DNA of 64,000 nucleotides from Patellaria atrata CBS 101060 (Eukaryota). The DNA lies in assembly GCA_010093705.1 (NCBI GenBank), contig MU006089.1, positions 942,157 to 1,006,156 on the forward strand, in the 5' to 3' direction. This document shows, piece after piece, positions 22,435 to 31,004 of this stretch; the stretch's first letter is position 1, and each line of letters opens with the position of its first letter. A program made the position numbers and the translations under genes. A model generated the notes under the pieces. The model saw only the letters and a program-made list of their open reading frames with translations, searched no databases and was not told the DNA's origin.

Positions 22435-23316
22435 ATGAAGTTATATGCCATTGCCGATATTCATCTCAGCTACCAGTCTAATCGGGAGGCATGGGCCGAA
22501 CTGAAAGAATTTCCCGACGACGGGCTCATCATCGCAGGCGATATCGGGGAGTCAGCGGCGCAACTGGAAACAGCTTTTGAGAAAGCAACATCCTGCTTCA
22601 GGCACGTCTTCTGGTGTCCAGGAAACCACGAGCTCTACACCCTCGGTTCAGTCACCGACTTAAAAGGAGAAGAAAAATATAACGAATGCGTCGAAATCGC
22701 GCGCAAATACGGCGTACACAACCCCGAAGATGATTTCTTCCGCTGGGAAGGCGAGGGCGGTCCAGTGCTGATCGCACCCATATTCACACTCTACGATTAC
22801 AGTTTCCGCCCGGATCATGTGAGTAGGGAAAATGCTTTGAGTTGGGCAGAAGAAGAAGATATCGTGGCCACTGACGAGGCGGTCCTACACCCTGATCCTC
22901 ATCCCTCACGTGATGCTTGGTGTTCGCATCTCGTCTCTAAGTTCTCTTCGAAACTCGCCGCAGCACAAGAAGAGCATGGTATACCACTCGTCATCATCAA
23001 CCACTGGCCGCTCCGCGAGGATTTGGTATACATCCCCCGCATACCACGCTTCAGCCTCTGGTGCGGTACTAAGGAGACCCATGAGTGGCATAGGAGGTTC
23101 AATGTCAAAGTTGTTGTTAGTGGACACCTTCATGTCCGCAGGACGGACTGGAAAGATGGTGTGAGATTCGAAGAGGTTAGTTTGGGGTATCCAAGACAGT
23201 GGAAAGATGTGAGAGATAGTGGACTCGATGTGAACTCGTTGTTACGGGAGATATTGCCTGGACCGAAGCCGCCTCCTGAGGGAGAGTCTCCCACGCAGTG
23301 GCGGCGTTGGGGATGA
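22435..23316 (+). CDS. Calcineurin-like metallophosphoesterase, PptH (Rv2795c)-like; intronless
   Basis: DIH, GDI, GNHE, NHWP, GHLH metal motifs; also YDYSF, VATDE, RDAWC, FSLWCGT, DGVRFEEVSLGYPRQW. Confidence 0.9.
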   Translation: MKLYAIADIHLSYQSNREAWAELKEFPDDGLIIAGDIGESAAQLETAFEKATSCFRHVFWCPGNHELYTLGSVTDLKGEEKYNECVEIARKYGVHNPEDDFFRWEGEGGPVLIAPIFTLYDYSFRPDHVSRENALSWAEEEDIVATDEAVLHPDPHPSRDAWCSHLVSKFSSKLAAAQEEHGIPLVIINHWPLREDLVYIPRIPRFSLWCGTKETHEWHRRFNVKVVVSGHLHVRRTDWKDGVRFEEVSLGYPRQWKDVRDSGLDVNSLLREILPGPKPPPEGESPTQWRRWG

Positions 23317-25928
23317 TGAGATGGTAGGCTCACCTTAGCATGTTTGTGGGGTGATGGTTGATTAGTATTGTATGCGAGTTTACATCGTCTGCAGTGTATA
23401 TCTTTAGATCCGTTCTAAGCATACATTTACAGGTTCCAGTAGACAGTGGCGAAGTTCTAGTTTGAGTATGGGAGGTACGTACCAGATTTTTCAAGCTCTT
23501 ATGGACTCATGGGAAGAGACTCGGCGGTAATCAATAGGGGAAGAAGTTTTGAAATTCCACTAGTCGTATTTCGTACTTTGCAAATTTCGAATGCGAGAAA
23601 TGGTGCATGTTTCTCTAAACGCATCGTCAGCTTCTCAGAGAACAGCTTAAGCACTCAGCGGTTCTACTAAATAAGAGATGCAGACCCTCAGACAATTCAA
23701 TTGCTCCATCTCCCACTATCCGAACAAGTCTCATTTTCCCTCGCGCTTCTTACCTAATGCGTCCGTAGAGAGTCGTCCGCTTGAAGACAAGTCTGACACT
23801 CTTTCAAACGGCGTATCCCGTACTCAATGAGGTCATATAACCGCTATAAAGTGGCAATAGTGTCCTTTTATACTAGACTTTCTGCTGTGTAACTGTTTCA
23901 ATCCTCATAGTGTGATACTCTGGGTAGAAGAAAACATGCGTGGTCATCATACGGACAAGGCTAGTTCTAAACACCGCAACCCGCACAAAAGCTGCTGCAA
24001 GTATGACTTACATTCGGTATGATCCGAAATCGATTGCACGAACAGTCGAATACGTGAGCGAAGTTCCGTGGAGACGTTGAACTAAATTGCAAATCCATAC
24101 CACTCGCGTCAAAATGCTCCCATTGGTCCCCGTCTCAACCCCCTGCTCTCCTCTCCAACCACAACCACACATCCCCAAACAATAACACCGCTATGTGAGA
24201 AGCAAAGATTTTGTCAGATCACCATTTCTATCCATCTCTATGAATCTTCCCAGCCGCAAGAGAGCAGCGAGATCCTCGTCTCCGCCCTCCCCACCGTCGA
24301 CGTCGCGCATCCGTGAAAATCAGGGCGATAGCGATATCGATGCTCTCACTCTGATACCGGCGGCCGACGCATGGCCGTTTGAGATCTCGGAATTGCTGAG
24401 TTTGCCTTCGGATGCGGTTGGAGGCAGCCCCGAGATGGGGGATAACAGGGGGAATTATGTAGAAGGGGAGAGTGTGTTTGTGCTGTGTGTTATGGGGGGT
24501 ATGGGGATGAGGGTGCATTATGATTTATTATGGTGAGAAGCTTTTTTCCTGTATAAAATTTAAAGGCAATTACATTACTTCGATCTCTCCAATACTTTTA
24601 TGTAACATATAATTTCCAAAGAGAATAAAAGAAAAAGAATATATATATATATAATCAGTCTCATCTTCAACTCCAACACAAACCCCATCACCCAACCCCC
24701 TTACCATTTCCCCCCTTTCATATAACATATCACATCATATCAAATACCATACCCTTCTAACACCTCACCCCATAGCATAGCATACCCTACCCTCCTAACC
24801 CTCTCCCCACGCATCCAAATCCTCGCGTTGACACCCACATCCTCCCTCCCCACCCCTTTACATCCCACCTTCACATCCACGCAGTTCCCTCGTATTCCTT
24901 CTCATGACCCCACTCAAAATACACCCCTTACCCCTTATCAAAACAACCCGGACCCTCCTATCCCCATCGACCCCTCTTCCCCTACCCTCCTCGCCCTCCC
25001 CCTCCTCCCAACACCACCCAACCTCCTCCTCACCCTCGGCCTCCTGCACCCCCTCGGCGGAGGAACGGGGGCACTAGATGCGATCGTTCTTCTGGATGCG
25101 GGGGGGAGGAGGAGATTAGTTGTTCCTTTTGGCTGGGGCGCGGGTCGGCATATTTTTGACGCTGCGGGCGGGGGGATGCTCAGGCGGCTATTGATGGGGA
25201 AGGTGGTTGAGGGGGTGGGCGGGTTGGTTGGGGGGAATTAGGGGGGATAGGAAGGGGAAGGGGGGAAGAGAATTTATAGAGGTATAAGGGGAAAGGAAAG
25301 GAGGGCGGGATTTTTAGAGAAGACGGAAATGTATCGCTTGGCTATCTTACCTTAGGTACTGTACCTAGAGGAAATCGGAAACGTTACTGTGAAAACTAAG
25401 GTTGAATGTAGCTGGATGAGGTGACTGAATTCGTATTAGCGGTGTCAGAGTGCGGCTGGGCTGCGATACGATTATTACTGTAACACTGTCCTAGAGCCTC
25501 AGCTGGAATTTTCTTTTGGCTTTTGCTTGAGATTTGGAATTATTTCGACTGTTTTTCTCTTCGCCGATTACTTCTCTATTTTCTAAAGAGATGTAGAACA
25601 AGAGGTGTGTTGATGACGGATTAGCTCTGATTTGGTATAGATACTTTGCCACGAAAGGGAAAAAAAGATCTTCAAAGCTAAAGATAGTAGTAGAGTAACT
25701 TCGTATCACATGTGAACAAGAGAAGCAAAATATTGTGGGCCCATTTACTTTTTTATTTTGTAACTATCGTCAAAAAACGCCTCCCCTCTTTTTTTGAGTC
25801 GTGATCTATAGTCTATGGATATGAACATTGTGTGAAACAGAGCTACCTCCCTAAAAATTTTCGCTAAAAATGACAAGAAGCAATCAATATACAGAGATCA
25901 TCAAAAAATCATCCCGAGACTGAAATAT

Positions 25929-27333
25929 CTACAGGTCCATGAGAGCGGCGGCCGCACGCTCGCTAGATACATAGATTACATCGTGCTTATCAGAGAAACC
26001 GTTGAAGGCTGTAGCTGAGGCGCGGGTGTACGCACCCATGTTCTCGAAGTAAAGCCAGTCACCGATGTCAATGGTGGTCTGGAAGCTGCTCTCCTTGGAG
26101 ATGCAGTCAATGGAGTCGCACGTTGGGCCCCAGAGAGAGTAGTCGGTTTGGAACTCAGGTCCGTAGTTCTCTTCTTCCTGGTTGTACATGTTACGGTTGC
26201 CAATCCTCAGAAGCTTGGGCTGAGGTGCTTGGTGATCGAAGATGATGTTGGAGAAGTTTCCATACACACCGTCGTTGAGGTAGAGCATGTAAGAGGTCTT
26301 GTTGGTCTCCTCATCGTGGACGGGACGACGAGCAATGACCGCTGCGGCGACAGTGAAGGCGCGCGAAACATAGTACCTTCCGGGCTCACCAATGATGCGA
26401 ACGTGAGCAGGCATGTAGGTCTCAAGAGCCTCAGACAGGGTAGCTGCGCTTCCCTCGAAGGTCTCTGGGACGAACCCACCACCAATATCGAGAGTCTTCA
26501 AGGTGTACCCTACCTCCTCAGCTTGGTCGAAGACCCAGCGTGCGTCCCGCACGGCCTTAAGGTAAGCCAAGGGATCCGTAGAGCCGGAGCCCACGTGGAA
26601 GGCGACACCAACGATATTGAGGCCAAGCTCACGTGCAAGGTCGAGCAAGCCCCTGACAGTATCCATAGGTGCACCAAACTTCAAGCTAAGGCGGCTGGTG
26701 GCGCCTGAGTCATCGGTGGCAATCCTCAAGAAGAGTTCTGCGTCTGGGAAGTGCTGTTGGACCTTGTAAAGCTCGTCCGCGTTGTCGAATGTCATCTGCT
26801 TGACACCGTTTTGCTGGGAATACTTGATGTAAGACTTGGTCTTGCAAGGGTTGGCATAGATGATGCGGGATGGGTCAACACCCATGCTCAAGACCTGTTC
26901 GATCTCGCCACGGGAGGCGCAGTCGAAACCGGTACCAAGAGCTGCGAGGAGGCGAAGAACGCCTGGAGCGGGGTTGCACTTGACGGCTGTTCGGACGTTA
27001 GAATTGACCACGTGTAATTAAGACAAAGTTATGCTTACCATAGTGAGGCTTGACGCGGGGCAAGTTGAGCTTCCAACGAAGGTGTTGGCGGTAGACCTCG
27101 CCCAAGTCAACGACGAAGAATGGATCTTCCTCTCCTGCTTCGCAAGTATCCTGGTTGATGGATTGGACGCGCCTCTTGAGGGCTTCGCCAATAACTAGCT
27201 TAGACCTCTCTGCAACATTGTAGTTGGGAGCCTTGTAGGTAACCGGGGAGGTGGTGTCGAACGGTACGATAGACTTAACGACCGGTGCCGGTGCGTATTC
27301 CTCGAAAGTGGTGGTGATAGCAGAAGGTGCCAT
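25929..27333 (-). CDS. SPE1: Ornithine decarboxylase (exons 27333-27039, 26986-25929)
   Basis: PHY-AVKCN (PLP lysine), GFDCAS, IIYANPCK, FHVGSG, LDIGGGF, EPGRYY, WGPTCDSID, MGAYT. Confidence 0.97.
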
Positions 27334-27405: not shown

Positions 27406-27648
27406 TTATGGAGGTTTGAAGGGCGTAAAGCCTGAAACTAGTTGCTGGCGAGGTCTCCTCGACTCTTCCTCCGCGAGGGGAAGGAGTCCCGGGAGCGTCC
27501 TATGCGGCAGGTAAGAAGGTTGGTCTAAAGCAGCAGCGGTTGTTCGTGAAGGGTTGATAAAGCGCTCAGATCTAAGAGACTGTAGTAGCGGTCGCAGTGG
27601 GAGGAGGGACGCTGTTGAGAATGTCTGGATGTGGTCGAATGGATACAA
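27406..27648 (-). promoter_or_regulatory. Non-AUG (UUG) uORF in the ODC leader, putative uCC, 80 aa ending SGFTPFKPP-stop
   Basis: No ATG on the minus strand between 27857 and 27334; TTG with A at -3 (TCCAAG TTG); stop 72 nt before the ODC AUG; TATAAA at 27806-27801. Confidence 0.7.
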
Positions 27649-29545
27649 CTTGGAGGGGAACCTGATTGAACTGTGGCGCCGTGATGTTACGAGGCCGCCT
27701 TTGCGAGTGAAAGGCAGCTAGATGTTTGAAGCAAGGGAAGTAAAGATGGTGTGTGACGGATGTCTGATGGAAACTGTATTCGGTCGCGGGTTGGGTCGAA
27801 TTTATATTCAGATTGAATGGGTTGAATGGATTGCGGTGTGAGTTGATTAGAAAGGAACATTTGAGGGGTTTGTGTATATGATTTTTCGCCAAGGACGAGG
27901 GCGAGTGTGTGCGGCCAGGGCAGATTGGACTTGGACTTGCCCTGAGCTGCCTCAACCTGCCTCCAAAGCCCAATACACGCCTCTTCCTCTTCACTACTGT
28001 ACACTAATTGATCCTACCGAAGCACGACAAACTAGAAGATCTCGTCAGCCGCTATGAGCATCATCAGCCTTGTTTGTCTTTGTCCGATTGTGGGGTTGAG
28101 GCTGGTCGGACGTAGTTACGCTCGAGCTTCAACTCCATTGAGCATCCTACGGCTTCTTTCAGGGCTTCGAAAAGATCTTCGTAACCCAAAGGTTACTATG
28201 GCGTGTGCCGAAAGACCCTTGATCTACCCTTCATGGTCATTTTTACTGTTTCACGCAATTCTTAACGCATCCTTTCATGCATCCCCTTATGTGGCCAGTA
28301 CTCGGGGGAAGGTATGGGTAGGTGTGGTGGGTATGGTAGGGGGTTAGGGGATATTGAGGGAGGGGGGTGAGTACTGTACATACAGTACAGCTCTTTTCCG
28401 CAAACCCTAATAAGGTACCTTATAAGCTTGTTCAGCATTTTGTGTATGGGCTCTACCTCAGGGAGCAGCATGGTGATGTGCAGATTGGCACTGCTACTGC
28501 TGCTACCCTACCTTACATTTCCCACAACATGCAGGGCATTCTAAAGCAGCTGTTGCCAACATGGAGCTGGCATGAAGCTGGCTTGAAGCTGGCATGGAGA
28601 ACACGATACGCTACGCAATATGGAATATTGGGCACTAGGACACCACCCACTTTTCCCTTTTCTACAGTACACATGGCGACACGTGCGTTTGATTTTGCAA
28701 ATACTCCGGAATTTATTTATGGATTTTCGCTTGGTACTGCAAGACAGTGGAGGTAAGGTAGAACTAACTGAACATGCTGAAGTGGCTGCGGTGCGTAGGT
28801 ATGAAAGCCGTTCCTTACGGTACCTGAAGCCGTAGACGCAAAGCCCCCCAACCAGTCCGAACGATCAACGATCATCAATCATCCAAGCGCAATTCCAAAC
28901 ACCCCAATTTATTATTGTACTTTACCATCTTGTTCTCTGCTTCTTGGTCCTCACGAGCTTACAGAGATACCTTAGCGTCTTGTACGGTTCCAACCTAAAG
29001 TCTGAAACTATCTCCACTTGTCGCGGGTCCGACAAGAAAGCTGAAAACGTTATACGAAGGATTACTCAGGCAAGAAGTTGAGTATGAACGGAAAGCCTCC
29101 CCATCTGATCGTTCCACGGCATTTCGAGCACATGGGTTTGGATCTGCAGGGCAGAGGAGAGTTTGCTTCCCATTACTACTTTCGCGACTCCATCTTTGCC
29201 CCGATTTGCTCAATAGACATGCGTGCAGGACTTTCTCACTCCTATCGACTATCGAGAAATACCTGAATCCGACTGTTCGCGTACGCAAATAAGCTTGGAT
29301 CCTCACAGACTAAGATTCGGGCAGTTAAGCTGCTCGTCTCAGATTCCCGTCCGTACAATCCGATCGAGCTTCTTGCACATCATGAGCCATGGCGTATTCA
29401 CTAATTCGGATTCGTCCGTACCAAGCGGGCCTTAACAGACTCTATATCGGCATCCTTCCAGGTAAGACGGACTGCACAATATCCTCCTTTGATTTCGCCT
29501 CAATAGTCCCCAGAATTGCACTAGGAGAGAATCAATCGTTTGTCT

Positions 29546-30686
29546 TCAGACAAACTCTGACATAATAAGTTCATCTCTTCCGTGAAATATGTACATGTCC
29601 ACTTGCTCCGCCGCGAAAGAATCTTCCCTAGGCAAAGGAAGGCTCGTCTTTGCACTGATGACAAGATCTTCCTCGGCCATGAGATCGAGAAAGATCGCCT
29701 CAGTCGGATGCCGTACTTTCGTTGCTAGCGCTACAGTCGCCTTGGGAGATCGCTTTACCAGAGTCGATATAGTACGGACAAGTGCAGGGATGGTGTCCGT
29801 GTTGTAAGTGCATTCCGATACCAGAATCAGGTCGATGAGCCTGCTCATGATATTCTCTGGTAATGGCATTTCCCAGTCTACAGCTTGGAACGCCACCTTC
29901 GACTTCATGGCAGGCTTCATCACGGATAAATTTTGGAGCGTTATTTCTTCAGCCTCAGGAAGGTCTGTAAGCAAAACGTCACAGTCAGAAATGGTTTGAG
30001 CCAGACTGATCCCCACCATTCCAACACCACTACCAAGCTCCAGAACGTTGACCCTCTTGTACGACGATGAACTCAGAACGCGCGCGAAAATCGGGAGATC
30101 ATCAGCTCGTGAAGCGGCTATTCGATCGATATAGGCCACCAGGGCGACACCTCCGTCCCTGGTTCAAGTCAGATTGATAATCTGCCCTAACTCGCTAGGA
30201 TAGGAGTCAATGGACAAACCAGATGTGGCGAGCAATACTTTCGCCAGTTTCTTCCCATATGCTCAATGTTCGGTGGTTCATCGGCCTAAATCGCCTTTCG
30301 ACCTTTCTTTCGGCTTGCTTTATTCCTTGGAGGGGGTCAAGAATGCTGCTCCAAACGGAAACTATGCTAGGAAGATAATTGTCGTCTTGTTGGTTCTCAA
30401 AAAGATCTGCATCGACGAAATTCTTCAGGCCAACGTGTACCCGCGCCGGCCAATTCATTTTTGACTTTGAGATGTCGAAAGAAACCGGACAAGCTCTCAT
30501 CCCTGCAGACCATTTTACGGTCTGTCGTAACATTACTTTGCCATGAGTATCGTTGGAGCGTACACTCGCCGACAAAAGCAAGTCTTCGGCTAGGAAACTG
30601 TCTCCCAAATCGGACGTGACAGTTATGACTGACTTGATAGACTGGCCTTCTAGCTTCGGCTGCTTGAGAAAACGGACATATCTCAT
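29546..30686 (-). CDS. METTL21/Methyltransf_16 family protein methyltransferase (2 exons)
   Basis: MRYVRFLK start; IWEETGESIARHIW-DGG; VLELGSGVGMVG; LLTDLPE; DLILVSECTYN. Confidence 0.88.
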
Positions 30687-31004
30687 CGCACATATAAAGA
30701 GTCGGTCTTTGTAAAGCAAGAAGAAAAATCACGTCGAGGAGTAGGAAAAGTGACAGTACTCTTGTGGGAACCAGATGGTGAGTTCTGTTGTGCTTGAGAT
30801 TTTCCGACTTTGAAATTGATTGTGAAAAGAACGATTGAGCAGTCCTCCCTTCCTGTAAAATAGTATAGGCTTTATCTGCTAGTTTTCGTAGGTATCTAAA
30901 ATAGGATTACTACCTATGTTCCTGATTCTACCCTGTTGAAATCACTGCAGTGAGATAAGTGTGCAAGGTTAAAGATGAAGGAATATCAAGGTATATTGAG
31001 CGGG

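Follow-up and report, generated by a model that had tools for sequence, protein, structure and literature searches.

The ornithine decarboxylase (ODC) gene of Patellaria atrata CBS 101060 is preceded by a long leader without an ATG, and the question it raises is whether that leader carries a polyamine-sensing upstream coding region, as a first-pass annotation had proposed, and whether one such region is all that it encodes. We analyzed a 64,000-nt stretch of contig MU006089.1 (hereafter the window), in which the gene lies on the reverse strand. Its product is identical to P0002 (450 aa; labeled ornithine decarboxylase, Patellaria atrata, at the source), against which the intron ends were read off the window sequence; it matches PF02784 (E 1.5e-74) and PF00278 in Pfam, and ODC has a single match across the genome. 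The upstream neighbor is a lysine methyltransferase-family gene (PF10294; window 29546-30728, reverse strand) and the downstream one a calcineurin-like phosphoesterase gene (PF00149; window 22435-23316, forward strand). The Patellaria genome also contains matches for each of eIF5A, antizyme and AdoMetDC. The features at the center of the question are the following, in window positions:

25929..27333, reverse strand: ornithine decarboxylase CDS, with one intron at 27038-26987
27406..27648, reverse strand: upstream coding region (uCC, also uORF-B), 80 codons ending FKPP*, with conserved LER, LPHRT, EEESRRPR and Pro-Pro-stop
27646..27648, reverse strand: UUG start of the uCC, inside a second frame (uORF-A, below), in its +1 frame
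27406..27414, reverse strand: Pro-Pro-TAA of the uCC, a predicted eIF5A-dependent termination pause

The letters had been read correctly in the first-pass annotation: the 524 nt before the ODC AUG (27857-27334) are free of ATG, the nearest upstream one being at 27860; one frame is free of stops from 27717 to a TAA at 27408-27406; a UUG at 27648 (TTG, with T at +4) has A at -3; and the 80 codons counted from it end GFTPFKPP*. The uCC lies upstream of the main ORF without overlapping it, with 72 nt from its stop to the ODC AUG, and its frame measures 103 codons from stop to stop. Within a single window these features are weak against chance. The leader is C-rich, and when its 524 nt are shuffled 5000 times with dinucleotides preserved, 10.5% of the shuffles lack an ATG, 63% hold an open frame of at least 103 codons, and 28% have PP* or PS* somewhere. 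Pfam assigned no family to the uCC frame, a single-sequence protein search with it gave one candidate and none at E 10, and Rfam had no match at E up to 1 between positions 25500 and 29000. We accept the uCC as real because it is conserved in relatives, not because of window statistics.

The relatives are metagenome loci fetched with an alignment of 57 fungal ODCs (best 80 of 241). The ODC start was placed in 74 of the 80 (left out were L004, L015, L029, L036, L064, and L075), and removal of short and duplicate leaders reduced 72 to 46 distinct ones, the window included. Taking away six leaders that lack the ACG described below, the fused L018 and the intron-bearing L032 leaves the 38-locus set; the codon (omega) test used 37 loci, with L034 dropped. 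By their nearest named ODCs, which we take to belong to the Dothideomycete, Leotiomycete, Lecanoromycete and Sordariomycete classes, the 46 leaders are Pleosporales-, Myriangiales-, Dothideales-, Helotiales-, lichen- and Xylariales-like. The sampling is uneven (many Pleosporales-like and Helotiales-like loci, one Sordariomycete-like locus), and no DNA locus lies near a Eurotiomycete; the reference set contained no Eurotiomycete ODC. The next ODC relatives after P0002 have 70% identity or less. The Patellaria ODC thus sits on a long branch, at most 70% identical to all others, with the relatives at 75-95% to their nearest named protein, and its leader elements are intact despite this.

The alignment of related leaders that had been suggested as a check was made, and the C-terminal peptide proved to be conserved with synonymous-biased changes. 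Pro-Pro-stop occurs within 300 nt upstream of the ODC AUG in 71 of the 74 loci; two of the remaining three (L014 and L050) have truncated leaders, and the third (L060) has lost the motif. The uCC stop codon is TAA in all 46 distinct leaders. Omega over the last 35 uCC codons is 0.43 (2dlnL 57.5 against an omega of 1; 37 loci), and over the last 7 codons it is 0.12, with 1.0 and 1.8 in the two shifted frames; L46, H48, P78, and P79 are invariant. These substitution patterns indicate that the uCC C-terminus is under purifying selection.

The start codon tells the same story. In 37 of the 39 loci that have a separate uORF-A, the codon at the 27648 column is near-cognate with A at -3 (TTG 16, ATT 14, ATC 4, ACG 2, CTG 1); the other two, L072 and L078, have no near-cognate in good context there, and have a TTG in good context further downstream. 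Between the ACG and this column, just upstream of the UUG, the uCC frame is closed in 20 of the 38 loci; CTG at 27717, which has T at -3 and this closure downstream of it, is therefore not the conserved start and was rejected. No ATG is found from the ACG to the uCC stop in any of the 38 loci, and in 26 loci with long flanks the number of ATGs per 100-nt bin, 42-66 at a distance upstream, drops to 2 in the bin next to the ACG. UUG, frame and Pro-Pro-stop, which the annotation had read together as a uCC, are thus conserved and selected, and the uCC is almost certainly real and homologous to the published one discussed next. In L032, a 55-nt GT-AG insertion (L032:2310-2364) lies inside the uCC; its removal restores the frame, and the spliced frame matches P0168, over the 45 residues compared, at the C-terminus of a hypothetical protein of Parastagonospora nodorum.

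That fungal ODC uCCs form an established class, as had been assumed, is borne out in print for Pezizomycotina by PMC2811004 (this article and PMC11550727 are cited here from excerpts). As reported by Ivanov, Loughran and Atkins (2008; via PMC2811004), the uCC of Pezizomycotina ODC (spe-1) leaders has no AUG and begins at a conserved codon of the AUU/UUG/ACG type in good context; the excerpted text describes a single uCC of up to 100 codons with adjacent prolines and conserved C-terminal residues. The Patellaria uCC has the same place in an ODC leader, the same lack of AUG, a near-cognate start and the C-terminal Pro-Pro. The published region is one frame of at most 100 codons, whereas Patellaria and its relatives have 71-84 codons from the selected start (38-locus set). 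By place, lack of AUG, start and C-terminal prolines the Patellaria uCC belongs to the published class; in length it has 80 codons from the UUG and 103 from stop to stop. The weak ODC AUG, which had also been pointed out, stands as an observation (C at -3 of the AUG at 27333) but not as a conserved context: the -3 base among the 38 loci is G in 33, C in 4 and T in 1, and a weak main start is therefore peculiar to the Patellaria genome and a few others. We rejected it as a conserved part of the mechanism. Four of the 38 loci (L024, L033, L035, and L055) have extra ATGs between the uCC stop and the ODC AUG, 45-86 nt before the annotated start.

The uCC interpretation is sound for frame, UUG and Pro-Pro-stop but incomplete: the peptide selected over its 5′ third lies in another frame, that of an overlapping ACG-started uORF.

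27572..27682, reverse strand: uORF-A, ACG start, 36 codons, core QVVSIRPHPDILNSVPPP, stop TAG at 27574-27572
27599..27607, reverse strand: Pro-Pro-Pro of uORF-A, a predicted eIF5A-dependent elongation pause

The ACG is present in 40 of the 46 distinct leaders, and all 40 have a purine at -3 (A in 37), G at +4, and an in-frame NxxPPP after the ACG. In 39 loci uORF-A is separate, with 28-41 codons, and the uCC is always in its +1 frame; the overlap in the window is 77 nt. All 33 aligned uORF-A peptides share N22 and P25-P27, and the prolines use all four codons (CCT 47, CCA 25, CCC 23, CCG 19). An 18-codon gap-free block, cut without alignment, gives an omega of 0.16 (2dlnL 155), or 0.13 without its prolines, against 2.04 and 3.11 in the other frames. 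Across the overlap, pN/pS is 0.23 in frame A and 1.83 and 1.97 in the other frames (19 independent pairs); in the flanks it is near 0.9 in all frames. Judged by these substitutions, coding selection over the overlap acts on frame A, not on the uCC frame, and uORF-A is very probably translated and selected.

The overlap nevertheless bears marks of the uCC. The uCC frame is open across it in all 39 loci (the 38-locus set plus L032), against 25 of 38 expected under synonymous recoding; the 38 of 38 is partly built in, since the set was picked with the uCC frame open and the relatives are non-independent. Beneath the uCC start, Asp in frame A is encoded by GAT in 16 of 17 cases (the sole GAC yields ACG), versus 15 GAC and 3 GAT elsewhere in uORF-A, and Val by GTT in 12 of 12, versus 10 of 31 elsewhere. 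Frame-A codon choice at this site tracks the start codon and not the amino acid, a pattern indicating that the uCC start is selected independently of peptide A. The distance from the uCC start (its position taken from the alignment column) to the first Pro of PPP is 41 nt in 37 of the 38 loci and 38 nt in one, and the distances from the ACG to the uCC start (31-40 nt) and from PPP to the uORF-A stop (12-48 nt) vary; the fixed 41 nt may reflect nothing more than a constraint on the length of peptide A.

uORF-A is absent from six of the 46 leaders, which fall into two clades (L005, L007, L011, and L066; L013 and L025), and also from L060. Both clades keep the uCC C-terminus, L060 excepted; the uCC can therefore persist without uORF-A. 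The leaders of L005, L007, L011, L066, and L060 also lack the hairpin H1 described below and have a TTG some 61 codons upstream of the stop; in three loci of this clade a TATAAA about 360 nt before the AUG suggests a shorter leader. The Aureobasidium-like L013 and L025 have a two-codon AUG uORF (MN-stop) just 5′ of the uCC frame, 303 and 278 nt before the ODC AUG, a layout nearer to the tiny-uORF design of plants. In L018 (L018:1993-2250), the ACG uORF (with NNTPPP), LPHRT and PP-stop are fused in one 85-codon frame; this is one metagenome contig, and the fusion may be real or an assembly error.

Outside the two reading frames, the leader contains elements that are constrained, or possibly constrained, as nucleotides.

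27694..27718, reverse strand: hairpin H1, just 5′ of the ACG
27461..27488, reverse strand: hairpin H2, possible and weak, inside the uCC
27502..27509, reverse strand: invariant TGCCGCAT, in the LPH codons of the uCC, a nucleotide-level constraint
27800..27807, reverse strand: TATA-like ATATAAAT, 125 nt before the ACG

H1 folds at -13 kcal/mol with a z of -3.6, for a 33-nt piece chosen around the stem. Over 34 aligned leaders, 93% of the cells of its 8-bp stem pair, compared with 22-56% for slid partners, and one of the eight pairs (the outer one) changed on both sides. Between the end of H1 and the ACG there are 11-15 nt in 36 of the 38 loci; a coding role for the hairpin was rejected, since this varying distance leaves no fixed frame. 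From the pairing across leaders, H1 is conserved and probably real, and covariation supports it weakly. The spliced contigs L039 and L041 match the genomic, intron-bearing L042 over 385 and 479 nt of leader, and H1 and the ACG are therefore on the mRNA in that species. For the Patellaria leader, ATATAAAT is only a hint of a transcript start 5′ of H1; a TATA-like word occurs upstream of the ACG in only 11 of the 38 loci, at variable distance. Two read sets over the window showed no joints or differences; they are probably DNA and may be the assembly source, hence silent on expression. H2 has 91.5% of its cells paired and a z of -0.39 in the window; its covariation was not above shuffles (237/500), RNAalifold gave no pair, and the whole leader folds no better than shuffles (z -0.79). 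The 8-mer is more striking: TGC[CT]GCAT is found in all 52 distinct leaders of at least 230 nt, including those without uORF-A, and is fixed at synonymous positions. In these leaders TGCCGCAT has no recurring pairing partner, long-range ones included; it is not enriched in the Patellaria genome (14 matches versus 24 for a control pattern), and none of the fetched loci for AdoMetDC, antizyme and eIF5A contains it. In the uORF-A frame, a TAG or TAA comes after the 8-mer in 37 of the 38 loci (window 27509-27500).

Comparison of the loci thus shows one order of putative elements: hairpin, ACG-started uORF-A with a selected peptide whose conserved part closes with NxxPPP, uCC start within it, PP-stop, and ODC AUG. 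Our preferred reading takes the ODC leader as a translational brake made of two uORFs, and we give this a probability of roughly 0.6. Both uORFs are probably repressive, with proline stalls making them respond to polyamines. To our knowledge, uCC translation with stronger main-ORF repression at high polyamines has been shown only for AZIN1. The factor that resolves proline pauses and is inhibited by polyamines is eIF5A. In the excerpted text of PMC11550727, where it is written eIF5, high polyamines stall ribosomes at the PPW of AZIN1 and the PS-stop of HOL1; scanning is then blocked by the stalled ribosomes, and small subunits in the queue initiate more at upstream weak codons.

In the two-uORF brake, most subunits would scan past both ACG and UUG at low polyamines, and ODC would be made; at high polyamines an elongation pause at PPP and a termination pause at PP-stop would form, and ODC would fall. 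A pause at PPP, which lies about 44 nt 3′ of the UUG, would promote initiation on the uCC: a short queue would not reach back over the 240 nt that separate the uCC start from its own stop, which is why we cast uORF-A as a candidate primer that would load ribosomes onto the uCC. That uORF-A specifically feeds uCC initiation in this way we put at slightly worse than an even chance. More tentative is the full proposal, that an undescribed second non-AUG uORF (ACG, NxxPPP) and the uCC form a two-stage polyamine sensor in Pezizomycotina ODC mRNAs, in which the PPP pause would drive entry into the uCC and the PP-stop would lock repression. Termination stalls may additionally lower the mRNA level. 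The N. crassa leader represses ODC about 30-fold, of which about 3-fold is translational, and polyamine depletion partly relieves it (PMC2811004, excerpt); repression that is mostly non-translational counts against the two-uORF brake.

Parts of this design resemble known systems. The HOL1 uORF of S. cerevisiae is short and AUG-started. Like the uCC, it has a penultimate proline and a stop, and polyamine-sensitive termination is predicted for the uCC from this likeness (PMC11550727); HOL1 encodes a transporter, whereas the uCC precedes ODC, has 80 codons and a non-AUG start, and ends in PP-stop instead of PS-stop. The parallel with AZIN1 that had been drawn for the uCC is right in that a proline motif is present, but the closer analogue of the AZIN1 elongation stall is, by its features, the predicted NxxPPP pause of uORF-A, in the other frame. 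The AZIN1 uCC (AUU start, PPW stall, queuing) shares with uORF-A the near-cognate start, an internal polyproline-type motif and an ODC-family target (PMC11550727, PMC2811004). The motifs differ (PPW versus PPP), and in the Patellaria leader the pause and the PP-stop are split over two frames; according to a review statement in the same excerpts, the AZIN1 and fungal uCC groups arose independently. The plant AdoMetDC mRNA, also of the polyamine pathway, likewise has two uORFs that overlap, and there too the first extends over the start of the second. In the account excerpted from PMC2811004, the plant uORFs are AUG-started, with a 1-nt overlap in most land plants, and the first has 2-3 codons and is not inhibitory; uORF-A and the uCC are unlike them in that both are non-AUG, overlap by 77 nt and have selected peptides.

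Two other readings keep both frames and give uORF-A another task. It could be a bypass: ribosomes started at the ACG would translate through the uCC start, terminate at 27572 and initiate anew at the ODC AUG, 239 nt further on, and uORF-A would then raise ODC at low polyamines, with the PPP pause shutting the route at high ones. The frame relation to the uCC, fixed in 39 of 39 separate cases, agrees with this, but reinitiation after a long uORF with a pause is inefficient, and few subunits start at an ACG; uORF-A has 28-41 codons, a selected peptide and PPP. The plant pair, in which a 5′ uORF occludes the start of an inhibitory uORF, has the geometry that a bypass needs, yet its tiny uORF has only those 2-3 codons in most land plants and does not inhibit (PMC2811004, excerpt), and we consider a bypass unlikely. 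It is less likely still that uORF-A and the uCC make one product of about 92 codons, ending in PP-stop, by an antizyme-like +1 frameshift after PPP. Antizyme-type +1 frameshifting has a conserved shift site at the ORF1 stop and an ORF2 without its own start. The uCC is +1 to uORF-A in every separate case, selection switches frames, A to B, immediately beyond PPP, L018 carries ACG to PP-stop in its single frame, and the published uCC length reaches 100 codons (PMC2811004, excerpt), all of which would suit a frameshift. The codons before the uORF-A stop, however, are varied (GTC, TAC, ACT, CCT, GCT, TTT, GTA, CAA, ATC, CGC, AAC, CCC, CAC, CCA, CTC, TAT, TCT) and all three stops are used there; since the stop context varies, there is no conserved shift site, and that candidate was rejected. 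Moreover, a frameshift after PPP would require neither the selected start that the uCC has of its own nor its open overlap, and L018 is one metagenome contig.

A different kind of explanation places the control at the level of nucleic acids. Both uORFs could be translated while the leader acts mainly on mRNA amount, through decay after uORF termination or through a TGCCGCAT-type DNA or RNA element, with translational polyamine control minor. The mostly non-translational repression in N. crassa (PMC2811004, excerpt) and the nucleotide-level constraint on the invariant 8-mer and H1 speak for this, but peptide selection on NxxPPP and on the last uCC codons points to nascent-chain stalls; as the main effect we hold it to be about as improbable as the frameshift, and as a downstream effect it is compatible with the two-uORF brake. 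The conserved blocks might also be RNA or splice signals, with uORF-A spliced, for example, to a CAG before LPHRT. Such a CAG stands before the 8-mer in 33 of the 38 loci, but it is absent from the Patellaria window, a donor-like word occurs in 1 of 38 loci and a branch-like word in 8 of 38, scattered, the region is kept in spliced contigs, and changes fall on third codon positions. This explanation is largely refuted, with very little probability left to it, and an intron joining uORF-A to the uCC was rejected on the donor-like words and the spliced contigs.

The two-uORF arrangement probably extends beyond the DNA loci compared. Profile searches with the uCC found 19 and 76 predicted proteins; in the set of 80 database proteins used (two long ones dropped), 78 end in PP, and in 46 the start and PPP can be traced in frame B with the spacing unchanged, where 0.1 are expected in shuffles. 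This trace is protein only, in frame B, and the ACG is not readable from proteins. Among the 46 are records named Neurospora tetraspora, Colletotrichum and Thermomyces lanuginosus, and Thermothelomyces is another name in the family. In public fungal genomes the uCC is misannotated as hypothetical proteins. Because the arrangement, by its frame-B trace, reaches Neurospora, where cell-free translation and ribosome profiling are available, the 30-fold repression by the spe-1 leader is directly testable. In the Sodiomyces gene model P0139, uORF-A residues are directly visible.

The excerpted text of PMC2811004 mentions no second frame, whereas in the loci compared a conserved ACG starts a separate NxxPPP uORF, which reassigns that ACG to a frame of its own. 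The literature searched, which excluded the primary 2008 uCC paper and its supplement, contained no description of an ACG/NxxPPP second uORF; from the putative ACG starts and the 100 codons given in the PMC2811004 excerpt, the authors may have seen the same ACG and read it otherwise, or described it. That the ACG/PPP uORF is already in print we think somewhat less likely than that it is new. Coding selection is stronger on uORF-A than on the C-terminal region of the uCC, yet gene callers do not see this frame. It would also offer an answer to how queue feedback could serve an 80-codon uORF with its stall 240 nt from the start, and, if the proposal is true, a ribosome paused in one uORF would choose the start codon of another.

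A side observation concerns the AdoMetDC gene of the Patellaria genome: in the locus L082 (G000:C3:724879-729150, reverse strand), the published Pezizomycotina uORF of that gene (MLRDDLLRFLSKPAK...) lies about 871 nt from the high end and is apparently interrupted by an intron donor, GTAAGT, within its last codons.
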